A stretch of DNA of 64,000 nt from an uncultured Chloroflexia bacterium (GTDB lineage: Bacteria; Chloroflexota; Dehalococcoidia; Dehalococcoidales; RBG-16-60-22). The notes beneath the pieces are model-generated. The model was not told the origin of the DNA. It saw only the letters and a list, made by a program, of their open reading frames with translations, and did no database searches. The DNA lies in assembly GCA_963796365.1 (NCBI GenBank), contig CAWCLJ010000004.1, positions 1,162,519-1,226,518 on the forward strand, read 5' to 3'. Position 1 is the first letter of the stretch. Each line of letters starts with the position of its first letter. A program made the translations under genes and the position numbers. Shown here in pieces: positions 3,213 through 56,363 of this stretch.

Positions 3213-4088
3213 ATGGTCCAGAATCTTACTCAAACCAAATTTTCGCCGGAAGAAATTACCGGCCAACTGGAGCAGGAAGTCCGGTCATTATGGCGGATGA
3301 TGCCGCGAGGAATATTACGCGGCGCCGAGTTACTGGTTTCCGCAATTCCGGTCCTCTGTATCATCGCGACGGTCATCGCCCAGGTATTATATACGGGCTA
3401 CAATCCCTGGCAGGATGCTATCAGCTCGCTGGTATGGAGCCCTCACGGGGCCATTCAAACGGCCGTCTTTTACCTCCTCGGGTTCTCGGTGTTAATCCTG
3501 GCGGTAAAATTATTCTTCAAGGCTAAACAGACGGTTTTGAAGACCGGTATTATCGCGCTGGCCTTAACCGGGGTAGGAATGGTGATGGTGGGGATATTCC
3601 CCGCGGCGCGTAACGGGTTCCCGCAAACGGTTATCAGCGATATCCATTTAAACACTTCTTCGGCGCTTATCTTCCTTTTCCCCATCGCCTGCTTTATTAT
3701 GGCCCCGAAGCTGAAAGAGTGCTTTTCCCGCCGCTGGCTATCCACATACACGCTGATTTCCGGCATACTGGGTATTGTATTCATCGGGGTAGAGGCATGG
3801 CTGCACTTTGCCGGCCGAGGCTGGATGGGCACTCTGGAACGGCTGGAGATATTGAACGGGATTGCCTGGGTGCAAACGGTGACGATACTGACGCTTAACA
3901 ACAGCAGCCAAAAGCGGCCTGAGACTGCCGGCGAGCTTAAAAACGCCGCAAAGAGTGAAGCAAAACCGCGGAGAACTTCAAGAATTATCCGGGCCGCGGC
4001 ACTAACGGCTTTGTGCGCTTTGATTCTGGTTCCGGCTATTCAGTTTGCCGGGCGGTCACGTAAAAAACAGGTGAAGGGTGGGTGTTAA
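3213..4088 (+). CDS. multi-pass membrane protein, DUF998-like, with basic C-terminal tail
   Basis: 291-aa ORF. 'YNPWQDAISSLVWSPHG' matches the same motif as ORF 1087-1737. Several TM segments. Confidence 0.5.
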   Translation: MVQNLTQTKFSPEEITGQLEQEVRSLWRMMPRGILRGAELLVSAIPVLCIIATVIAQVLYTGYNPWQDAISSLVWSPHGAIQTAVFYLLGFSVLILAVKLFFKAKQTVLKTGIIALALTGVGMVMVGIFPAARNGFPQTVISDIHLNTSSALIFLFPIACFIMAPKLKECFSRRWLSTYTLISGILGIVFIGVEAWLHFAGRGWMGTLERLEILNGIAWVQTVTILTLNNSSQKRPETAGELKNAAKSEAKPRRTSRIIRAAALTALCALILVPAIQFAGRSRKKQVKGGC

Positions 4089-4170
4089 TTCACTAAATTG
4101 ACGCCGGAGAGAGGGCAGGGGGAAAATATTTTTCAATCGTGGGGCAGCTTCAATTTGTGACAAAATACTA

Positions 4171-4200
4171 TTGACATGATTAGAACACCAGTGCTAATAT
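4171..4200 (+). promoter_or_regulatory. near-consensus promoter with extended -10
   Basis: TTGACA (4171-4176), an 18-bp spacer, then TGcTAATAT (4192-4200). It reads into the tandem repeat array. Confidence 0.6.
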
Positions 4201-4267
4201 AGGCTGTCAAGAGAAACGAAGATGGATAGGTGTGAACGTGAGACAACTATGAGAAATTCGATTCCAA

Positions 4268-4480
4268 CATTATGTTATTTCAGGCTTGACCCAGGCGTGA
4301 TTCGTTTTTCAGGGGTATTATGGAAAGCTAATCTCGCATCAGGCGTGAATCGTTTTTTAAGGGTATTATGTTAAATCAGGCTCGGTCCAGGCATAAATCG
4401 TTTTTTTGACATATTATGGTAAGCCTAGATACGATTCAGGCTCAAGGGCCTTTTTCAGGGTAGTTATGGTAAGTGATAGT
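4268..4480 (+). repeat. 48-bp tandem repeat, about 4.3 units
   Basis: Unit starts at 4268, 4316, 4364, 4412 and 4461. Conserved cores are TATTATGG, CAGGC and CGTTTTTT; the rest is degenerate. Confidence 0.85.
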
Positions 4481-4741
4481 GGATAGTGAATAGTGAATAG
4501 GGTTGAGGGTTAAGGGTTGAGGGGTGAGAAAAACTTCAAACTCTAAATCCTAAAACTCTAAACAAGCACGAAATACGAAGCTCGAAGCACGAAAGCCCCA
4601 CCACAAACCATTCCGTCCCCCGTATCGCAGTACGGGTTCAACCTGGTTCCACCGAGGTCACCACGAGGTGAACGGTTCACCGTGAACGGGGCAGGCTTGC
4701 AACGGTATGGTTACGGGTGGGTGATAACCCATCTTACTACA

Positions 4742-4870
4742 TTATTTCAGGACAGCGCGGACAAGGCGGATAACGCACTCTTCATCCAAAGAGGGCAGGC
4801 CCAAGTGAGCGCCGGCCAGGCCGATGGGCGAGACTCTTTCTCCGGTGCTACCGAGCGTGCGGTAAGTCAT
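4742..4870 (-). pseudogene. aldo/keto reductase, N-terminal 42-codon fragment
   Basis: Translates to 'MTYRTLGSTGERVSPIGLAGAHLGLPSLDEECVIRLVRAVLK*', a typical AKR N-terminus. The reading frame then ends in repeat modules. Confidence 0.6.
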
Positions 4871-4992
4871 GGAATTTTCAGGATATTTAAACCGGAGGGT
4901 TTTAAGATTAGGGGAGAATACTTATAAAGGTTAGACTGAACGAGAAAGGAAGGTAGGTATTTGCGGTAAATAATTTTAGTGGATTATGTATC

Positions 4993-6672
4993 TTAAGGAA
5001 TTTTATTTTCATATACGTAATCGTATAAATTCCTAGCTTCTAGGTTGTTATTTTCAGCAAGTATTTGTGCTAAATATGAAGTCGATAAGGTAAGATTAGC
5101 ATTGTCTTTTGCAAACTGACGTATTTTTGCAAGTAATTGTTTTCCTTCAGATAAAGTATGCCTTTTTGAGGCATCATTCCATATTAGATCAAATTTTGGC
5201 TTTATTTCTTCATAAACGGTATAAAATTCTTTACCTTTTGCAATAGGCGAAAATTTTATAGTTGCTTGTACATATTTTATTAGAGTTGGTTCATGTAACT
5301 CGTTATAAGTTGAATTTAAGAAATCTAAAAAGAGATTACGCAATTGTTGTGGAAATATCGATAATAATAAATCTTGTTGAAGAAAAATATTTTCAAATTC
5401 ATGTCCAGGTGTGAACGTTGTCCTAATCCCATTTCTTAAAAGCTCAATTGAAATTTTCTCAAGATAATCACCTGGATAAAAATCTTTGTCTAATAATAAA
5501 GAAAAAGAAGGTTCTTTTGCAAAGAACATTTTGTAAGCATTTTTATACGAAGAACAATCTTGCCACTTATTCAAGCCGAAAATTGGAATGTTATGAGTAC
5601 GAACAGATGAACCAAAGGCCTTAGCAATTTGTGTCAATAATGCATAGTCTTGAACATTCTCAGTAAAAATTATTCTCTCTACATCCTCAAATTGCGAGGC
5701 CACAAGATTAAATGAACTACCTATATCTTGGCGAATTTCCTCTAGACGATCTCTATTTTGAGTTGGTGTTGGTTTTGAAATATTGATTCCGCGTTTTATA
5801 TGTAAAATATGACTGAAATCAACCTCATTCATTAATTCAGAGGAATGTGTTGCAATTATCATTGAACCGGTAAAATATTCACGGAAGGTCTGTATCATAA
5901 TATGTTGCATTTCAGGATGTAAGAATATTTCAGGTTCATCTAATACTATTGTAGAACAATAAGAAAGTCTGACGAGATGGGTCATGAGTTGTAGCCAAAT
6001 TTGGAAACCTTGACCAGCGTAAGAAATTTCTCCCGTAATATTTCTTTCGGTAAAGGGACAATAAAGAATGTTTGTAGAACGATCATGTCCGACATCTCCG
6101 AGTATAGTTCTATTCCATGTTTCATAAATAATATTTTTTACTAATTCTCGTTGCTCGGGAGTTAGAAGTTGATATATATGATTTCTAATATGTAAAGGAG
6201 CTAATGAAGTATTTAAATGACTAAGAATATGGTCCCTACTTAAAAGTGCTTCCTCTTCGCGGATTTGACCTAATGGAGGCATAAACCCTAAAAGTGATTT
6301 AAGTGATGAAGGAGAATAAGCAGGTAAATTACATATAACCTGTTCCTTCTCACTATCAATATGAACTATTATTTCACGGCCGTTATCAAGTTCTGCCTGA
6401 ATTTCTGCAATACCATCTTGAAAACCATGGATTAGTCTGCGTAAATTTAAATCCTTAAGGTCACTAGCGTACAGTTGATGTTCAACCTCTCGGGTAGTTC
6501 CTTTTGCAAATCTAAAAGAATTTTCAAGCAATCTAAGCGCACGAAGAAGAGAACTCTTTCCAACATTATTCTTCCCTGTTATTAGAACGAATGCTTGATT
6601 GTCAGTAGGAAATTCAAATTCGTGACTAGAGTATGGACCAAAATTTTGCAAAATTATCCGTTGGATTTTCAT
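4993..6672 (-). CDS. ABC-type ATPase fused to TOPRIM/DUF4435-like domain (OLD-family / PARIS-like nuclease candidate)
   Basis: Start 'MKIQRIILQNFGPY' at 6672. The listed ORF extends upstream only because it reads into the IS. Walker A 'GKNNVGKS', 'YAGQGFQ', Walker B 'IVLDEPEIFLHP', 'ATHS'. C-terminal 'IIFTENVQD' and 'LLLDKDF'. Strongly AT-rich. Confidence 0.7.
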   Translation of the reverse strand: MKIQRIILQNFGPYSSHEFEFPTDNQAFVLITGKNNVGKSSLLRALRLLENSFRFAKGTTREVEHQLYASDLKDLNLRRLIHGFQDGIAEIQAELDNGREIIVHIDSEKEQVICNLPAYSPSSLKSLLGFMPPLGQIREEEALLSRDHILSHLNTSLAPLHIRNHIYQLLTPEQRELVKNIIYETWNRTILGDVGHDRSTNILYCPFTERNITGEISYAGQGFQIWLQLMTHLVRLSYCSTIVLDEPEIFLHPEMQHIMIQTFREYFTGSMIIATHSSELMNEVDFSHILHIKRGINISKPTPTQNRDRLEEIRQDIGSSFNLVASQFEDVERIIFTENVQDYALLTQIAKAFGSSVRTHNIPIFGLNKWQDCSSYKNAYKMFFAKEPSFSLLLDKDFYPGDYLEKISIELLRNGIRTTFTPGHEFENIFLQQDLLLSIFPQQLRNLFLDFLNSTYNELHEPTLIKYVQATIKFSPIAKGKEFYTVYEEIKPKFDLIWNDASKRHTLSEGKQLLAKIRQFAKDNANLTLSTSYLAQILAENNNLEARNLYDYVYENKIP

Positions 6673-6820
6673 AATATTTGACAAAGTATAAAACAAATAA
6701 ATAGGACAGTCAAGAAATAAAAATCGTTCATAACGCTTAAGATATACAAAAATCTCGTTTATTCTAAAAGCTAAATCATTATTTGTCAGTCCCCTCCTAG
6801 CCATATACGTAACCGAACCA

Positions 6821-8183
6821 GAGGTTCCGTCAATAGGTGTGTAAATGTCAGGCGACGGCAAGTACCTCCTCCTGTTTGATTTCTCCCGGGCCCAGGCTTT
6901 CGATACCCAGGTAAACTTCCTGTAATATCTCCGGTGCATCCAGCTTTCTGAATCGCTGCTCGGCAATCAAAAGCATCTTCCAGGTTACTGCCGTAGCGTT
7001 GGCCACTTTCTTAAAGCGCTTGGCCGCATCGGTCCGCAGTCTCAGAGCGGCGAAGGGCGATTCGACCGGGTTGGTGGTTCGAAGATGCTTCCAGTGCTCC
7101 TTCGGGAACCGATAAAAGGTCACCATCCGCTCCCAGTCATGCTCTAGTGCCGCGGCGGCCCGGTCATAGCCTTCTTTCCGGCACCAGCGGACGAAGTGGT
7201 CGCGCTTAACTTCGGCTTCCTCGCGGTCTGCCGAGTACACAATTCCCTGTAATTCATTCTTAGCATTGCCTTGTGCCTTCTTCGGTAACTTATCCAGCAC
7301 GTTTCGCACTTTGTGATTCCAGCAACGCTGCTCCAGCGCATCGGGAAAGACAGCATTCAAGGCTCCCCAGATGCCCAGGTGACCATCGCCCACTACCAGC
7401 CGGGGACAGTTCAGACCGCGTCCTTTGAGGGAACGCAACAGGTCGGACCAGCTTTCGGTAGATTCGCGATACCCGGGCTCCACCGCCAGGATCACCTTCC
7501 GCCCATCGCTTAATGCGCCGATCACCACCAGCAGCGCCGCCTTAGTTTTCTCCAGACCAGCCTTGATGTATACTCCGTCAACCCACATGTAGACCAGTCT
7601 CAGACCTTTGAGACTGCGCCGCCGCCACTCTTCCCATTCAGCTTGCCAGCTCTCCTTGAGTCGGGCTATCGTACTGGCGGAGATGGGCGCCTCTTCTCCC
7701 AACAGACCCCGTAGCGCCAGGTCAAAATCACCTTGCGCCAGACCGTGCAGGTAAAGCTGTGGTAAAAGCTGATTTACCTCTTTCGTCCTTCTGGCGAACA
7801 ACGGCAATACCCGGCTCTTGAAACGCTCCGCCAGACCTCTGACCCTGGGCCGGCGCACGGTAATGGTCCCACAGCCCAGCGTTAGCCTTCGCCGCTTGCC
7901 GTAGCCATTCCGGTACGCCCGCGAAGCATCCAGTCCCTCGCGCCGCTCGGACTTGCCGCGCCCCAACAGCTCTGTTATTTCATCTTCCAGTAGAGCCTGG
8001 ATGAATTCCCTCACCTTCACCCGCACCATCTCTTCGAGATAATCCCAGACTTTACTTGACGACTCCGGCTTCCCTGTGGTTTGCTTTCCCATGGTGGTGG
8101 GTACCCTCCTTCTGTTTGTTTCATCACTAACAGAAAGGGTACTCGCTGCCGCTAACTATTTCCACACTTTTTGATGATACCTC
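6821..8183 (-). mobile_element. IS256-family insertion sequence, apparently intact
   Basis: Imperfect terminal inverted repeats (GAGGTTCCGTCAATAGGTGTGTAAATG... versus the reverse complement GAGGTATCATCAAAAAGTGTGGAAATA...). 8-bp direct target duplication CCGAACCA at 6813-6820 and 8184-8191. Confidence 0.9.
6848..8092 (-). CDS. IS256-family (mutator-type) transposase
   Basis: 414-aa ORF with 'VYMWVDGVY', 'VVGDGHLG' and 'RCWNHKVRNVL' blocks characteristic of Transposase_mut. Confidence 0.9.
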   Translation of the reverse strand: MGKQTTGKPESSSKVWDYLEEMVRVKVREFIQALLEDEITELLGRGKSERREGLDASRAYRNGYGKRRRLTLGCGTITVRRPRVRGLAERFKSRVLPLFARRTKEVNQLLPQLYLHGLAQGDFDLALRGLLGEEAPISASTIARLKESWQAEWEEWRRRSLKGLRLVYMWVDGVYIKAGLEKTKAALLVVIGALSDGRKVILAVEPGYRESTESWSDLLRSLKGRGLNCPRLVVGDGHLGIWGALNAVFPDALEQRCWNHKVRNVLDKLPKKAQGNAKNELQGIVYSADREEAEVKRDHFVRWCRKEGYDRAAAALEHDWERMVTFYRFPKEHWKHLRTTNPVESPFAALRLRTDAAKRFKKVANATAVTWKMLLIAEQRFRKLDAPEILQEVYLGIESLGPGEIKQEEVLAVA

Positions 8184-8291
8184 CCGAACCAGGAAACCAT
8201 ACGCGTGTACTATAAGTGAGGTCACTTATTCTCGTGGAATATATACAGGTGGAATAATCGTAACGGCAATACGATTAAGGTGGTAACCGCT

Positions 8292-8522
8292 ATGTCTATC
8301 ACAGAAAAGTCAGAAAAAAAGATGCTCTCCCGGCTAAAGGGAGACAGCCGCTCCGGCCTGAAAATAGAAGTGGGGCCGGACAAACGCATTCGCCTGGTCC
8401 TGGATAAGAGTGGAGGCTCCCGGCAAAACTATATCAGCCCGGCCTATCTTGCCCAGGGAGAACTGGATTCTCTCCCCAATGAGACTTTTTTCGACGGGCA
8501 GGATGATGACTTCGATTTCTAA
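8292..8522 (+). CDS. small hypothetical protein with acidic C-terminus
   Basis: ATG at 8292 preceded by AAGGTGG. 76 aa ending in 'DGQDDDFDF'. Host-like composition. No family recognised. Confidence 0.4.
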   Translation: MSITEKSEKKMLSRLKGDSRSGLKIEVGPDKRIRLVLDKSGGSRQNYISPAYLAQGELDSLPNETFFDGQDDDFDF

Positions 8523-8567
8523 AGGCGGGTCGATGGCGGCGCCAAACCTGAATGACGGTACTGATGA

Positions 8568-9644
8568 ATGCGCATAGGTATGATAGCTCCCCTGGAAATG
8601 CGTGTCCCCCCGGTGGCTTACGGCGGCACGGAACTGCTGGTAAGCCTGCTCACGGAAGAGCTGGTGAGGCTGGGGCATAACGTCACCCTTTACGCCAGCG
8701 GGGATTCAGTGACCAATGCCAGGCTGGTATCCTGCTGCTCCACATTTTTAAGAGGGTCGCCCAAAGATAAGTGGGTCTATAACCTGCGCAACGTGGCGGC
8801 CTGCCTGGAAAACGCCGGGAGCTTCGATATTATCCACAACCATACGTTTACCGAGGGGCTTTCCATGGCGGGGTTGAGCAAGACGCCCGTCCTCACCACG
8901 CTGCACGGCATCCTCGAGACGGAATGGAAAGAGCTTTTCCTGGCTTATAAAGGCTGGTACAACACCATCAGTTTTTCCGCCAAGGAATTACTGCCGGCGA
9001 AAGACCGTTTTGCCGGGGTCATCTATAACGCCATCGACGTGGACTCCTATCCTTTTAAAGCGGCCGCCGGAGAGGACTACATGCTGTTTTTAAGCCGCAT
9101 CAGCCATGAAAAAGGGCCGGACATCGCCATCGAGGTGGCAAAAAGGATGGGGAGGAAGCTCATCATCGCCGGGAACATAGATACCAGAGATGTGCCTTTC
9201 TGGGAAGAAGAAATCAAGCCTGAAATCGATAACGACCTGATTACATACATCGGGGAAGCCGATTATAAGACGAAAAGAAAGCTGATGTCCGGGGCTTACT
9301 GCCTGCTGGCGCCCATCACCTGGAACGAGCCTTTCGGCCTTTTTATGGTAGAGGCGATGGCCTGCGGCACGCCGGTAATCGTTTTCAACCGGGGTTCGGC
9401 GCCGGAAATCGTCATCGACGGCCAGACGGGCTTTGTCGTGGACACGATAGACGATATGGTAAAAGCGGTGAAAAACGCCGGCAAAATAGATAGGGCGCGC
9501 TGCCGCCGGCACGTCAAATTCAACTTCGATGTACGGCGACTGGGGCAGGCCTATCTGGACGCCTACCGCCTGATACTGGAAGAAACTCACGGCAACGGCC
9601 GAAAAGGCTCCATGGAAACAAGGGAACAGTACTCTAATTACTAA
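8568..9644 (+). CDS. glycosyltransferase family 4
   Basis: 'PPVAYGGTELLVSLLTEEL' N-terminus and the E-x7-E region 'EPFGLFMVEAMACGTPVI'. Confidence 0.85.
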   Translation: MRIGMIAPLEMRVPPVAYGGTELLVSLLTEELVRLGHNVTLYASGDSVTNARLVSCCSTFLRGSPKDKWVYNLRNVAACLENAGSFDIIHNHTFTEGLSMAGLSKTPVLTTLHGILETEWKELFLAYKGWYNTISFSAKELLPAKDRFAGVIYNAIDVDSYPFKAAAGEDYMLFLSRISHEKGPDIAIEVAKRMGRKLIIAGNIDTRDVPFWEEEIKPEIDNDLITYIGEADYKTKRKLMSGAYCLLAPITWNEPFGLFMVEAMACGTPVIVFNRGSAPEIVIDGQTGFVVDTIDDMVKAVKNAGKIDRARCRRHVKFNFDVRRLGQAYLDAYRLILEETHGNGRKGSMETREQYSNY

Positions 9645-9871
9645 CATCAATTGGCAGGGGGTAAGTATCAATTGCCAAGTATCAAGTATCAAGGAAGTGA
9701 TAAGTGATAATCGTTAAATGATTAACCCCCTCCCCGAACCGATATCCTTCGCCAGGCTCAGGATGACAAAGGAGGGGAAGATTGATTATAAACAGAGATA
9801 CATGAGTTTGGCCAGTCATCCTCTCCCTTTGGTAAAGGGAGAGTAAGAGAAGGATTTTGAGTAAAAAATAA

Positions 9872-11947
9872 ATGGACCATCACCCTCAAGAAGAAAAGTC
9901 AGCCGCCAGCTTTGCATTTATACCCGCCATAGTTTCCATGGGGTCCGCCCGGGTTTCCTGCGGCACCCGCTTTATCGTCTCCGCCGATAACGGGGACATC
10001 GTTCCCCGGGAGCGCCACCAGGGTTTTTACGCGCATGATACGCGATTTCTTTCCCAGTTCACCGTTACCGTTAACGGAAAAAGGCTGAACAACGTCGGCC
10101 GTGCCACCTTCGAAGACCGGCTGGCGAGCTTTTACTGCACGGTCGGGCAGATGAGCATCGTGCGGGACCGGAACGTCTCCCAGGTTTTCCATGAGGACAT
10201 CAGCATTACCAATAACGGGATTCACCCGGTAAACGTAAACCTGGAGATTGCGCTGGGGGCGGACTTCGCCGATGTGTTCGAGGTGCGGCGTGGCACGGTA
10301 CATAAAGCCGGTAATATTACGCTGGAACAGTCCGGGCCGGAAGGGCTGACCCTTGCTTACCGGAGGGGAAATTATTTAAGGGAGACCAGAATCCGGTTCA
10401 ACACGCCGGTAGAGATGAAGGGCAACGTGGCCCATTTTGAATTTCAATTAATGCCGAAAGACATCTGGCGGACGTGCATCGATATCAGCCCGGTGATGAA
10501 CAGTCACGAACACCAGGCATCAGCGTGTGTCAGCGAGATACTGGGCAAGCCCTTCGGCAACTACCAGGACAAGACCTATCTGGGTTTCTTCCAGGAGGTC
10601 GAGACGGGGATGCCGCTGGAAAAAGTGCCTTCCATCAAGACCGATAACCCGGACCTGGCGCAGGCTTATCACCGGGCCGTGGGCGACCTGCGGGCGCTGC
10701 GCCTGCCGCAGCGAAACGGGTATTATGTGCTGGCGGCCGGTCTCCCCTGGTTCATGGCATTATTCGGGCGGGACTCCATCATCAGCGCCATGCAGACCAA
10801 GATACTCGGGCCGGAACTGATGGTCGGCACGCTGCATACACTTGCGAGTTTGCAAGCCACCGGGTTCGATAAATTCCGCGAGGCGGAGCCGGGCAAAATC
10901 ATCCATGAAATAAGGCGGGGGGAGCTTTCGCTCTTCGGGAATGTGCCGCATACCCGGTATTACGGCAGCGTGGACGCCACGCCGCTCTTTATCATGCTCT
11001 TATGGGAAGCCTACCGCTGGACCGGCGACGTTAAAATACTGGAAGACATGCTGCCTTACGCCGAACTGGCGATGGGCTGGATCGAAAAATACGGGGACGT
11101 GGATGAAGACGGCTTTACGGAGTACCGGCGGCGCATCAGCAAGGGGCTGATCAACCAGGGGTGGAAGGACTCTTACGACTCAATATCCTTTAACGACGGC
11201 ACCCTGGCGCGCGGGCCGATAGCTTTATGCGAGGAGCAGGGGTATGTTTATGCCGCCAGGAAAAGCCTGGCATCCGCCAATGAAGTCCTCGGCAACTTTA
11301 AACGCGCCGATGAGCTATTAAGCGGCGCCGAAAAATTAAAAAAACAGTTCAACCAGGCTTTCTGGATGCCGGAACATGATTATTACGCCATCGCGCTGGA
11401 CGGGAAAAAGCAACTGGTCGATGCCATTTCTTCCAACCCGGGGCACTGCCTCTGGACGGGCATCGCGGACGATGACAAGGTGGCAAAAGTGGCGCAGCGG
11501 CTGACAGCCCCGGACATGTTCGCGGGGTGGGGCGTGCGGACGCTTTCTTCCGAGGCGAAGCGGTACAATCCTCTTTCCTATCATAACGGCAGCATCTGGC
11601 CCCATGATAATTCCATCATCGCGGCGGGCTTAAGGCGATACGGGTTTTACCAGGAAGCGGCCAAAATAGCCATGGCTGTCATCGAGGCAACGGCCGTTTT
11701 ACCGTCCCACCGCCTCCCGGAACTGTATGCCGGCTATACGCGGCGCGCCTATTCTTTTCCCGTCCCTTATCCCGCCGCCAACTCCCCGCAGGCATGGGCA
11801 TCCGGCTCGGTCATTTATTTCATGGAGACGCTGCTGGAGATAACGCCGGAAAACGAGCAGCTTGTTTCCGGCCCGCTGGTAAAAGCCAACCCGATGTTTA
11901 TTTTAAACGGGGTGCGCTACAAGGATAAAAAGCAGGCACTGCCGTGA
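9872..11947 (+). CDS. amylo-alpha-1,6-glucosidase / glycogen-debranching-like (GDE_N_bis + GDE_C) protein
   Basis: 691 aa. N-terminal 'GFYAHDTRFLS' and C-terminal (alpha/alpha)6-type blocks 'GLPWFMALFGRDS', 'GWKDSYDS', 'YHNGSIWPHDN'. Confidence 0.8.
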   Translation: MDHHPQEEKSAASFAFIPAIVSMGSARVSCGTRFIVSADNGDIVPRERHQGFYAHDTRFLSQFTVTVNGKRLNNVGRATFEDRLASFYCTVGQMSIVRDRNVSQVFHEDISITNNGIHPVNVNLEIALGADFADVFEVRRGTVHKAGNITLEQSGPEGLTLAYRRGNYLRETRIRFNTPVEMKGNVAHFEFQLMPKDIWRTCIDISPVMNSHEHQASACVSEILGKPFGNYQDKTYLGFFQEVETGMPLEKVPSIKTDNPDLAQAYHRAVGDLRALRLPQRNGYYVLAAGLPWFMALFGRDSIISAMQTKILGPELMVGTLHTLASLQATGFDKFREAEPGKIIHEIRRGELSLFGNVPHTRYYGSVDATPLFIMLLWEAYRWTGDVKILEDMLPYAELAMGWIEKYGDVDEDGFTEYRRRISKGLINQGWKDSYDSISFNDGTLARGPIALCEEQGYVYAARKSLASANEVLGNFKRADELLSGAEKLKKQFNQAFWMPEHDYYAIALDGKKQLVDAISSNPGHCLWTGIADDDKVAKVAQRLTAPDMFAGWGVRTLSSEAKRYNPLSYHNGSIWPHDNSIIAAGLRRYGFYQEAAKIAMAVIEATAVLPSHRLPELYAGYTRRAYSFPVPYPAANSPQAWASGSVIYFMETLLEITPENEQLVSGPLVKANPMFILNGVRYKDKKQALP

Positions 11948-12078
11948 TAGGGGATAGAGAATAGGGAATAGTGAATAGGGAATAGGGAATAGGGAAAAGT
12001 TAAAACTCTAAATCTTAAACCCTAAATCCTAAACAAATTCTAATAACCAAATACCAAAACACCAAACTCGTCTTCTTA

Positions 12079-18319: not shown

Positions 18320-18693
18320 AAGGAAAACAACTGCAGGTAAAATTTTTCCGGCGGAAATGTTACCTCCCGGGGATTTATTGATACCAGTTTAGGGAATGGG
18401 AGGTATTTAGTCAATATTTCAACTATTTAGAGCGTAACAAAAAACAAAAATCCCCCGGAACTCTTGAAAGGAAACGGGGGATAAATCATTACTCGCTTAT
18501 TTCTACATTTGTCTCGTATACCAGTCAGGTCTACCGGTTAAATAATTTAAATTCTTTCCGCCCATTTTTTATCTATGAATTGTGTTTTTAAGATTTGCCC
18601 CCGTATCGCAGTACGGGGCATGCTTTTGACTTCTGATTTATTCTTATCAACCCCCTGAATGAGGGTGAGTGTGAGTAGTTGGTAGTTAGGGAT

Positions 18694-33691: not shown

Positions 33692-34289
33692 TTTTTACTC
33701 CGGGTTTATTACTTATAATTAACCAATATATTATAATGCATTACGCACATGACGTAAAGGGTTTTTAAATATTTTTAGGGGATAGAGAATAGGGTATAGG
33801 GAAATAGGACACAATGGATAGAGTTTGTCACTCCCGCGCAGCCTGCCCCGCACGACAATCGGGGGCCGGAATCTAACATTACCCAAATATATTTTAAGGG
33901 CTGTAACATAACGCATTGAATCAGCATAATACATTGTCACCCCTTGTTAAAGGGAGAGACGAAGAGGATTTGGGGGGAAGAGATTAACAGCTTATAAAAG
34001 GTAAATCCAGCCATCGCCACATATCAGGCGAAACAGGCTTCCAGTCTATCGGCACAGGCGGGGACGCCTGTGCCGCCGGGGAAAAAGGGTTGGGCTTTAG
34101 AATTTTCCCCTACTTATCTTCCCTTCGCCCTTCTCCCTGAAATCAGTATTTATCTATGTAACTGACTTGACAAGCCTGCGCGCAAGTGATAGGTTATACA
34201 TTGGTTTTCCAAGAGAGGCTGGGAATTCCTTTTTTACATTTAGTTCGATTCTATTACCGGCAGCCCTGTGAGTTACGAGAGGTGGAAAG

Positions 34290-38915: not shown

Positions 38916-39801
38916 GGTATGCCTGCTTATGTTTAATCTAAGATAAATTTACTCCAAACAGAATCAATATACAAGACGTGCAATCTCAAAAATCAAAAAT
39001 GAAATCTCATAACCACATCTTAAAGGTAAAATCTGTAGCGGTTTTTAGATACGAATCGTTTTGTAAAATATTGGATTTTAAAGTAATCTTTTTTATCGAA
39101 TATTTTTTGAGCGCGGCTGAAGCTAAATATTCGATATTCGATTTATGGTAAATAGCTTAATTTTCCCGGTTATTCGTTCCTTCGATTTACCAGCAGTCGG
39201 CTATTAGCTGTGAGCGATTAGCGATTGGCTTTCCAAATCCTCCTCGGCTCCTCCTTTTACAAAGGAGTGACGATGTACCCTGCAAAACGAGCAACATACA
39301 ATATAACCCCAAAATATATGCTAAGACAATGGTGGATTCCCGATTAGATCGGGAATGACAAGTGTAAAAAGGTGGGGCAGGCCTCCGTGCCTGCCCTGCA
39401 CAGGCGTGACGCCTGTAATACCGGCTTTATTCAGTTGTTAAGTTGCTTTAAAAGTACTTCTCTATTTTGTCATTCTGAGGAGTCCCGGAAGGACGACGTG
39501 AGAATCTCGAACATCGGGTTTGCACATACATTTAGATTCTCACGCCTTTCGGCCTTCGGCCTCAATGGCTCGCAATGACGGAGAAAAAAGAGCGAAGGTA
39601 ATAGTGCAAGGCAATAATAGTACAAATGTTCCGATAATGTCAAGAGGATTTTGTCAGAAATTGAAGCCGTAAAGAGAATGAAAATCCCTCTCTAACCCTC
39701 CCCTTACAAAGGGGAGAGGATGATTAGCTAAATCAATATATCTTTGGTTATATTCAATCTTTCCCTCTTTCGTAAGGAGGGATTAAGGGAGATTTAAAGA
39801 G

Positions 39802-43713: not shown

Positions 43714-43823
43714 GAATAATTTTCTGACTAAAAGACGATAATTGATTTTATTATAGCTTACCCGCTGAAATACTACGAGGAAGGGGGGACTAAAGCAAGA
43801 AACTCTAAGCACGAAACCCTAAA

Positions 43824-49387: not shown

Positions 49388-49506
49388 CCCTGGCAATGGC
49401 ATATTTTCCGCAAAGGGTTGCCCCCTCAGTATCGTCTGCGCTGAGGCGTTTCACTTCCGTGTTCGGGATGGGAACGGGTGGGTCCACCTCGCTCTAATCA
49501 CCAAGA
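49388..49506 (-). rRNA. rrf: 5S ribosomal RNA
   Basis: The minus strand reads CTTGGTGATTAGAGCGAGGTGGACCCACCCGTTCCCATCCCGAACACGGAAGTGAAACGCCTCAGCGC...GCCAGGG. The ends pair as helix I, and a T-run follows. Confidence 0.9.
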
Positions 49507-50113: not shown

Positions 50114-50249
50114 GGGTTAGTGGGTAGTGGATAGTGAATAGTGGATAGGAAAATCCGAAGCACGAAGCAAGAAATAAGAAACAAATTCAAAACTTTAGAT
50201 AATAAGTTCAAAAGGGGGCCGAAAGGCCCCTTACTTTTTTTACAAGCGG

Positions 50250-51324: not shown

Positions 51325-51435
51325 TTCTGACGAAGGTCAGAATCCAGCAAAAACTTCAGAGTTTCTTTGCCTTTTTAAATGGATTCCAGCCGGAGTTTAT
51401 ACTGAGCAAAGCGAATGTACGGGAATGACATTTGT
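51325..51435 (-). repeat. composite hairpin-module element C2
   Basis: Its reverse complement begins CAAATGTCATTCCCGTACATTCGCTTTGCTCAGTATAAACTCCGGC, as does the left half of C1, then continues with a GGATTCTGACCTTCGTCAGAATGG hairpin. Confidence 0.7.
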
Positions 51436-51545
51436 TTTTTATCTTTGATTTGTGTTTTTGAGATTTGAGATTTGATTTTTGAGATTACACCCTCCCCCCT
51501 CCCCGCCCTTGCCTTTCCCAGCTAAACATAATATCCTGATAATGT

Positions 51546-53553: not shown

Positions 53554-53700
53554 GGCCAAATCCTCCTTATATGCTCCCTCAAAGGGAGGACAATTACCGG
53601 GTCAACAAATAAAGCTCTACATATAAAAGGCTAACATCGTCTCCCCTTTTAAGAGCCTGCCCCGTACCGCGATACGGGAGGAGATGAGAAAAGGATTCGA
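53554..53700 (+). repeat. ~148-bp composite intergenic block, copy 1
   Basis: Shares CAAATCCTCYTTATAT..CTCCCTYRAAAGGGAGGACAA and CTAACWTCGTCTCCCCTTTTAAGAGCCTGCCCCGTACCGCGATACGGGRGGAGATGAGARAAGGATTCG with 54462-54610. Confidence 0.8.
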
Positions 53701-54461: not shown

Positions 54462-54610
54462 GGCAAAATCCTCTTTATATCCTCCCTTGAAAGGGAGGAC
54501 AACTAATCGGCTGTTAAATGACGATTAATGCGCGAGAGGCTAACTTCGTCTCCCCTTTTAAGAGCCTGCCCCGTACCGCGATACGGGGGGAGATGAGAGA
54601 AGGATTCGTG
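54462..54610 (+). repeat. ~148-bp composite intergenic block, copy 2
   Basis: See 53554-53700. It ends with the same ..GAGATGAGAGAAGGATTCGTG context in front of the DUF559 gene. Confidence 0.8.
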
Positions 54611-55767: not shown

Positions 55768-56363
55768 CTGCCAGCCTTTAGCTATCGGCTTTCAGTCCCC
55801 CCTGCCCCTTTTCCCCTTTTCCCCGCTCATCCTGAGCTTGTCGAAGGATATCATGCTGTAGGAGTCCTTCCGCTTTTAGTGAGCTATAGTTTACCTTGAG
55901 CGAAGTCGAAGGGAACTATCGGAAGAACGGCGAAGCATCTCAGGGCGGCGGGGTAATTATTCCTTAATTCTAAAATGTCCTCCCCACCCTGATATCCTTC
56001 GTCCGCCTGCGGCGTCCTCCAGGATGACAAGAAATATTATTTTACTCGTAACCTGGCTTCAATTTTTGACAAAATCCCCTTTACAACCTCCTCTCAACAC
56101 TACTATACTGAAAGCTGAAAACTGACTACTGATAAATCACTTGCACCTTTACAAATCAACAAAAATCGAATTATTTAGCAAGACAAAATATTAGTAAAAC
56201 ACAGCTAAATTAACATAATATATGGGAACGAATAACCGGACGAATCAGCTTCGGCCCAAAGTTAACTGGGTAAAAAATTGCTGAAAAAACGAATCGAATA
56301 AAAAGAGGTGGTCGGGTGGTGTAACTGTATACCGTAAACTGTTAACTCCACCAGGAGCAGCAT

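Follow-up and report, generated by a model that had tools for sequence, protein, structure and literature searches.

What does a strong promoter make when it reads into a short tandem repeat and no protein gene follows? The question is raised by positions 4171-4480 of the 64-kb stretch of DNA analysed here (64,000 nt; the window), for which an earlier note had offered three candidate answers, namely a ToxI-like antitoxin RNA of type III, an iteron-like protein-binding array and a repetitive small RNA. The promoter, a leader of about 62 nt and the repeat units recur together in four metagenome contigs of relatives (L008, L013, L015 and L017), which with the window form a comparison set of five cassettes in two clades. 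Its lineage is one of uncultivated Chloroflexota, with relatives that carry the label Dehalococcoidales; a PyrK protein encoded on the same contig as the window's DUF998 protein has relatives labelled Dehalococcoidales or Chloroflexi RBG_13_51_52, which suggests a Dehalococcoidia-like genome. L008 carries four units and a truncated fifth with AGGGTT-type heptamers, and its cassette is inverted between a DUF998 gene and an AKR gene with an intact C-terminus. Two units each are present in L013, where they adjoin an opposite-strand ORF of 134 aa without family match, and in L015, where the neighbour is a divergent HNH nuclease gene. L017, next to a divergent pyrK, has one unit and a second remodelled to a compact hairpin with a U run. 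Module number across the five copies is 1-2, 2, 2, 4 and 4, is equal within each clade, and the truncated extra module is always at the end.

The strong promoter described in the earlier note was borne out: it is the joint best site across 3800-5200 in the promoter scan, with 10 of 12 matches. Its core (4171-4200, plus strand; 83% identity to L008) consists of a -35 element TTGACA at 4171-4176, an 18-nt spacer and the extended -10 element TGcTAATAT, with TG at 4192-4193 and TAATAT at 4195-4200; transcription of the cassette would start at about 4206-4208, a predicted position. The scan returned TTGACA-18-TATTAT as the equivalent in L008, TAGACA-18-TAATAT in both L013 and L015, and TTGACA-17-TAATAT in L017. 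A promoter thus stands at the same place in all five cassettes (T[TA]GACA, 17-18 nt, TA[AT]TAT), with the TG extension in four of them. L015 has a second site, TTGACA-17-TAATAT, at 684-722 on its minus strand; it shares the strand of the cassette, lies about 300 nt beyond it in the downstream direction within a long ORF-free stretch, and may mark a second small transcription unit.

Homology to L008 begins at an upstream promoter module (AATATTTTTCAATCGTGG ... GCTTCAATTTGTGACAAAAT; 4123-4170, plus strand; 69% identity), a putative UP-element-like or regulator-site block; AATATTTTTTCACTCGTGG is also found upstream of the L015 cassette. The 20-mer GCTTCAATTTNTGACAAAAT occurs in three exact copies in the 64-kb window (4147+, 39667- and 56056+) against 0.04 expected, and each copy is followed by -35 and -10 elements (4147-4200 on the plus strand, 39667-39612 on the minus strand and 56056-56110 on the plus strand). 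Of the other two copies, one precedes an MgsA/RarA-type ATPase gene by about 700 nt and one precedes ispD-ispF-cysS by about 290 nt, and the leaders behind both are long and without ORF. That the module is common to the cassette and to housekeeping genes supports a functional cassette promoter; it could be a shared regulator-binding site, a UP element or a portable promoter. A link to the promoter of the 5S rRNA gene was considered and rejected, since the module differs; the 5S gene (49388-49505, minus strand; 88 bits) has its own TGcTATAAT-type promoter and is accompanied by no 23S or 16S gene in the 64-kb window. Behind promoter site B, at about 39470-39585 on the minus strand, the window contains a MITE-like long hairpin (GTCATTGCGAGCCATTG ... 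GAGATTCTCACG ... CTCCTCAGAATGAC), and this element also follows the L008 cassette at about 1165-1345.

The promoter is followed by a leader of about 62 nt (4207-4268, plus strand), a 'unit 0' that ends in an invariant CCAAC ahead of ATTATG, holds the 5' strand of a helix described below (P1) and includes CCAACATTATGT, which is unchanged in all five homologues. The tandem units then follow much as previously noted, the earlier starts (4268, 4316, 4364, 4412 and 4461) being correct within 1-2 nt and the fifth unit proving to be truncated. A repeat search places units in register at 4269, 4317 and 4365 with 68-77% identity to unit 1, and the junction motif TTTTT..ATTATGG occurs four times (4305, 4353, 4401 and 4451) at spacings of 48, 48 and 50; unit 4 is more diverged, and TRF therefore calls just 2.9 copies (4269-4406; 71% matches; score 141). 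The short cores were likewise recovered, with TTATG and CAGGC in all units, CGTTTTT in units 1-3 and CCTTTTT in unit 4, and the letters TTATG, A14, CAGGC, A32 and TTT are invariant in the unit alignment.

The units, all on the plus strand, differ in how closely they match their counterparts. Unit 1 (type A; 4269-4316), which holds the 3' strand of P1, is the most conserved part of the cassette, with an identity to L008 unit V1 of 92% in the cassette alignment and 88% in the unit-by-unit comparison and of 69-78% to unit A of the short forms. Unit 2 (4317-4364) is in register and 68% identical to unit 1, and has no clear orthologue among the L008 units (best identity 69%). Unit 3 (type B, ATTATGTTAAATCAGGCTCG...; 4365-4412) is 81% identical to L008 V2 and 75-78% identical to the second units of L013 and L015; its 3' end plus TTGACA offers a pairing partner for the first 15 transcribed nucleotides. 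Unit 4 (4413-4462; 50 nt) has an AGGC..GCCU mini-hairpin ahead of its U run and is 76% identical to L008 V4 and 73% to V3, so that U1-V1, U3-V2 and U4-V4 are the best unit pairs across species. The truncated fifth unit (GTTATGGTAAGT; 4463-4528) merges into heptamer repeats (AGTGAAT four times, AGGGTTG four times), and four G-tracts lie in its region at 4500-4524. Homology to L008 persists to about 4528 with 70% identity and then drops to 41%, the level of unrelated sequence.

Beyond the array the heptamers continue as AGTGAAT, AGGGTTG, AAACTCT-like and AAGCACG repeats and lead to a REP-like palindrome, CCCGTATCGCAGTACGGG. This palindrome, or its CGCGGT variant, occurs four times in the window (4619-4636, 18600-18617, 53661-53678 and 54570-54587; 0.03 expected). 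G-rich and C/T-rich blocks at 4499-4560 are mutually pairable and include a four-tract G-quadruplex motif at 4500-4524. Heptanucleotide or 14-nt tandem repeats occupy many intergenic spacers (4472-4594, 9663-9693, 11947-12034, 33776-33808, 43793-43822, 50118-50148 and 51433-51486), and make up at least eight of the arrays that TRF lists in the 64 kb. Short heptamer repeats are known from cyanobacteria, and the intergenic heptamers of the window resemble them in a Chloroflexota-type genome.

No protein gene follows the array on the plus strand, in agreement with the earlier note. Only two ORFs are present, one of 50 aa inside the array (4222-4374) and one of 81 aa antisense to a remnant of an AKR gene (4682-4927), neither with a Pfam or PADLOC match, and in the four homologous contigs no co-oriented ORF with a family match follows the array. 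As 48 nt correspond to 16 codons, a protein repeat of 16 residues was considered; it was rejected on account of stops in all six frames and homologues that keep no ORF. Decayed AKR coding sequence was rejected as well, since tblastn with a relative's AKR finds nothing in 4090-4741.

One explanation that needs no information in the repeats has the strong promoter run into a failsafe stack of weak intrinsic terminators or into an insulator; in another version the units are translated mini-ORFs, each window unit having an SD-like GGGG ahead of an AUG. Every unit is closed by a U run with a possible hairpin ahead, and three units look terminator-like: the second unit of L017, where a compact hairpin precedes the U run (CTAAAACGTGGTTTTAG-TTTTT), and window unit 4 and L008 V2, where AGGC..GCCU does so. 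SD-like AGGGG or AAGGG motifs with an ATG are present in the window and L008 units. Yet no unit was picked up by the terminator scan, the SD-like motif is missing from L013, L015 and L017 (CATCGTATTATG), the peptides differ (MLFQA*, MES*, MYY* and M*), and termination alone would not account for the invariant CAGGC and UUAUG; by inspection, the ATG-initiated mini-ORFs also vary in length between cassette copies. We therefore consider this explanation improbable. On the cassette strand the scan, which demands three G-C pairs in the hairpin, found no terminator-like site 3' of the array at any of the five loci; in L017 an A+U-rich hairpin and T run visible by eye after the second unit fails that rule and has no gene behind it.

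How strongly the cassette is maintained can be judged against its surroundings. The region alignable with L008 (about 4123 to about 4528) has abrupt limits on either side and shows 73% identity overall, compared with 63.5% for the DUF998 protein, 54% at four-fold degenerate sites and about 41%, i.e., no homology, in the unalignable flanks. In L008 promoter and array are flipped together relative to DUF998 and AKR, and their orientation relative to each other is fixed in all five copies. Units inside one array are only 59-73% identical in the unit-by-unit comparison. The position-specific matches across species, the lower identity within arrays and the clade-stable unit number point to old duplications and units that are individually maintained, and across the five copies the behaviour of the array is unlike that of a hypervariable minisatellite. 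The comparison establishes promoter, leader, one to four modules and the lack of a gene as a conserved unit under constraint, with a fixed internal orientation.

Searches for the unit in other genomes and for the genes behind it, as the earlier note had suggested, yielded the four homologues and no toxin-like gene following them. A metagenome scan with a pattern of two units, drawn from the conserved cores alone, returned six loci, three of them true homologues and the others chance matches. Viral scans with the unit pattern gave one chance match and then none, and phage and plasmid searches with the cassette gave no match. In a collection of one genome per species, which lacks the lineage of the cassette, the pattern ATTATG-N17-CAGGC-N5-TCGTTTTT produced three single matches, one each in Treponema, Bacillus and a spirochaete MAG; none had an array at its position, and all were rejected as chance. 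A covariance model trained on only the three short forms detects the window copy (29.5 bits, E 0.0023) and L008 (E 0.0067), and nothing further in the 64-kb window or in 16 other loci of related organisms.

The surroundings of the window copy have been rearranged. A DUF998 membrane-protein gene lies upstream (3213-4088, plus strand). The antisense AKR remnant of the earlier note was confirmed, since 4870-4748 on the minus strand matches residues 1-41 of a relative's AKR (63% identity, E 9e-13), the sole AKR remnant detected. Past it, an AT-rich segment of 31-37% G+C carries an OLD/GajA/AriA-like ABC ATPase (4993-6966, minus strand), for which no partner nuclease gene was identified, and an IS256/Mutator-family transposase (6848-8092, minus strand) that overlaps the listed ATPase ORF. 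A further relative, L007, has the order DUF998, intact AKR on the minus strand, DUF5701, a small ORF and a glycosyltransferase; the window retains the small ORF and the glycosyltransferase (8250-9632) and has lost DUF5701 and all of AKR past its start. This comparison places the array in a rearranged spacer and marks the defence-type island as a separate insertion. The adjacency to a defence island that the earlier note pointed out is thus real in this genome and specific to it, as the other four cassettes have unrelated neighbours; neither the island, which is incidental, nor the AKR stub is part of the cassette. The interval 4748-8092 is a hotspot of gene decay and insertion, in which AKR is cut to 41 codons and an ATPase gene replaces the DUF5701 of relatives.

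Such surroundings raise the alternative that the cassette is selfish or near-neutral: it could be a minisatellite or a small mobile element which carries a portable promoter, sits in rearrangement-prone spacers and has no cellular function. The contexts in L013, L015 and L017 are unrelated, and the orientation in the DUF998-AKR spacer is opposite in the window and L008. The window copy is set among heptamer repeats, REP-like palindromes, a MITE-like hairpin, a truncated AKR and an IS256 transposase, and no cassette stands beside pyrK at four loci in relatives of L017. In a different sequencing run (ERR10755942), a contig of this organism (L001 3391-3553, equal to window 4121-4283) is identical through the promoter and ends within unit 1, which may be an assembly break at the repeat or array variation in that sample; a look-up of the AKR-stub ORF, meant to reach past the array in a further sample, gave no record. 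Against mobility, the cassette is a single copy in the 64-kb window with none in the 16 further loci, and no convincing terminal inverted repeats or target duplications surround it. Unit conservation is position-specific and copy number clade-stable rather than hypervariable, and the cassette is more conserved than the synonymous sites of the neighbouring gene, a pattern that recent transfer could mimic. Taken together, a functionless element appears unlikely to us.

Evidence at the level of RNA comes from helix P1, an inverted repeat (I5) of 4211-4220 in the leader (GAGAAACGAA) and 4301-4310 in unit 1 (TTCGTTTTTC) on the plus strand. P1 pairs xAGAAAC and 3-5 nt of the leader with 3-5 nt and GUUUUU of the first unit, and it is part of the minimum-energy fold of all five homologues. 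In an alignment with both P1 strands in register, paired cells amount to 90%, and sliding the partner lowers this to 45-62%. Compensatory changes are seen at three pairs (G-C/U-A/A-U, A-U/C-G and A-U/G-C) and one G-U pair is invariant; the covariation score was reached by 2 of 500 shuffles, in a test on the five sequences from which P1 itself was derived, and the covariation is best described as modest. The compensatory pairs and the invariant G-U pair indicate a plus-strand RNA, which is the likely product of the cassette and has a structure that the data define in part. Within units, UUAUGU faces GGCGUGA with 80% of cells paired compared with 27-39% when slid, including several G-U pairs; the helix drawn by hand from this complementarity showed no covariation above shuffles.

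The computational folding that had been proposed for the array was less informative. Sense-strand folds of the cassette have z-scores of -0.3 to -1.8, which are not significant. An autonomous hairpin per unit was rejected, as RNAalifold gives no consensus structure for 13 aligned single units, and a P3 helix proposed for the short forms is broken in the window and in L008. The energy of the leader-unit duplex was equalled by 36-183 of 500 shuffled leaders, because the A-rich leader pairs readily with the U run.

These results bear on a DNA-level array, in which phased protein-binding sites beside the promoter would act as an operator or in a centromere-like, iteron-like or nucleoid-organising role and the transcript would be incidental. 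The invariant TTATG, CAGGC and T run are short motifs without consensus hairpin, the fold energies are not significant, and protein binding is one possibility discussed for the size-conserved 52-nt repeats of Bacillus (PMC8161180). However, P1 and the unit complementarity rely on G-U pairs, which are confined to the transcribed strand, the leader covaries with unit 1 and is not itself a repeat, and the orientation of promoter and array is kept even when the cassette is inverted. We thus regard binding sites in DNA as an unlikely basis for the conservation. The iteron-like array of the earlier note is disfavoured by the same strand-specific G-U complementarity and by a missing replication gene: no replication or partition gene is nearby, the neighbours being DUF998, the AKR stub, the ATPase and the transposase, the locus lies on a contig of 1,996,400 bp, about 2 Mb, and searches with the cassette gave no plasmid or phage match.

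Among the explanations considered, the repetitive small RNA fared best, supported by a conserved promoter of fixed orientation in all five cassettes and by the lack of a protein gene. We propose, with about even confidence and on the strength of comparative sequence analysis, that 4123-4528 is a self-contained transcription unit, a stand-alone small non-coding RNA gene with a multiplied 3' module. Of the features expected from a small RNA gene, the five sequences show a promoter, the lack of an ORF and conservation, together with modest covariation of P1 and energies that are not significant.

In the proposed mechanism, the leader would pair with the 3' part of the first module and close an RNA of about 95-105 nt, and inside each module UUAUGU would pair with GGCGUGA in a G-U-rich helix on the transcribed strand only; the pairing statistics support both steps, short of proof. 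Every module would then form a weak hairpin followed by a U tract, as a result of which transcripts would end, or be cut, at successive modules and give rise to a unit-length ladder. The invariant UUAUG, CAGGC and U run may in this way be displayed two to five times as binding sites of a trans-acting partner. Tandem terminator modules would be one form of such a gene. A decoy with repeated motifs that titrates a protein, or a regulator with several seeds, would be another, which we advance with confidence well short of even; possible targets with complementarity to CCAACAUUAUGU occurred in the window at chance level. Rather unlikely, in our estimate, is the more ambitious version of a new class of modular riboregulators of Dehalococcoidia-like Chloroflexota, whose 48-nt modules, each a hairpin and a U tract, would be set free by termination or cleavage as unit RNAs that titrate or neutralise a partner encoded elsewhere, acting as a ToxI-like or CsrB-like stoichiometric buffer with a dose set by the module number (1, 2 or 4).

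The cassette is a candidate for a new family of small RNAs, built on a module multiplied in tandem, from a lineage that has been poorly sampled. Few studies appear to have addressed the regulatory RNAs of Dehalococcoidia-type Chloroflexota, and the cassette offers a concrete candidate: its promoter is mapped, its start is predicted, one helix covaries, and the five homologues differ in module number. For annotation, the name type III antitoxin is not warranted for short tandem repeats behind a promoter where no toxin is present, and a defence island beside such a cassette can be a separate, lineage-specific insertion, as it is here.

Comparison with known families places the cassette outside those considered. 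Rfam 15 gave two chance-level eukaryotic matches outside the units for 3900-5100 of the window at E up to 10, and no match on the cassettes of L008, L013, L015 and L017; over the 64-kb window 5S rRNA alone passed the gathering score and no tRNA or tmRNA was found. A full-text literature search on the core motifs returned nothing relevant, and the top eight papers of a looser keyword search were all unrelated. CRISPR arrays, recognised here by near-identical repeats of about 28-37 nt, unrelated spacers and, usually, nearby cas genes, were rejected: the array repeats every 48 nt, its 'variable' parts show homology from unit to unit as well as conservation across genomes, and cas genes are not among the neighbours.

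CsrA sponges of the CsrB/RsmZ type carry multiple GGA motifs, mostly in hairpin loops. The cassette resembles them as a predicted stand-alone small RNA gene with a strong promoter and a reiterated motif whose number varies between lineages. In contrast to them, it reiterates UUAUG, CAGGC and a U run in regular 48-nt duplications, has no linked binding protein and displays neither a conserved GGA nor a consensus unit hairpin, and we do not assign it to this type. Sibling sRNA arrays, of which NsiR1 of Nostoc and LhrC of Listeria are examples, have a separate promoter and terminator for every repeat. The cassette shares with these arrays sRNA-sized modules placed head to tail in an intergenic region, whereas a single promoter heads it and its 48-nt units are too short for individual promoters.

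Type III toxin-antitoxin loci are defined by -35 and -10 elements, tandem repeats, a short palindromic terminator and then the toxin gene; the ToxI array has 5.5 repeats of 36 nt, and cptIN and tenpIN are further systems of this type (PMC3401426). A tandem array behind -35 and -10 elements is present in the window and at the four homologous loci, whereas neither a terminator before a toxin nor a toxin gene directly downstream on the same strand occurs at any of the five. The ToxI-like antitoxin suggested by the earlier note is accordingly not supported: no ToxN, CptN, TenpN or AbiE-like gene is present at any locus, the scan detects no terminator after the array, and units within an array are merely 59-73% identical. 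An orphan or trans-acting antitoxin, whose endoribonuclease toxin is encoded elsewhere or lost, would retain the upstream half of the type III layout (PMC3401426), and the window copy does adjoin a defence-type ATPase. That ATPase gene is convergent and found in this genome only, a toxin gene or co-oriented ORF after the array is absent from all five loci, and copy number goes down to 1-2, all of which, with the missing terminator hairpin and the divergence of the units, makes an orphan antitoxin highly improbable. What the cassette has in common with type III arrays is a promoter followed by short tandem units, predicted here to be non-coding, from which unit-length products are plausible (PMC3401426); it differs from them in units that are diverged and position-specific, in a non-repeat leader that pairs with the first unit and in a homologue with only one or two units.

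A further comparison is offered by intergenic repeats of Firmicutes with units of 52 nt and 20-21 nt, which are conserved in size, non-coding and reported as transcribed in one species, with RNA and protein-binding roles both having been put forward (Subirana and Messeguer, PMC8161180). Like these, the cassette is an intergenic, non-coding array of tandem units of about 50 nt with few conserved short motifs (PMC8161180), and it represents such a repeat under constraint, the function of its Firmicutes counterparts having been described as enigmatic (PMC8161180). The Firmicutes repeats occur many times per genome, are species-specific and vary in length between strains (PMC8161180), whereas the cassette is single in the 64-kb window and keeps a 48-nt period. 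It is further distinguished from them by a conserved promoter and leader of its own, and by conservation across genomes in which the neighbouring protein is only 63% identical.
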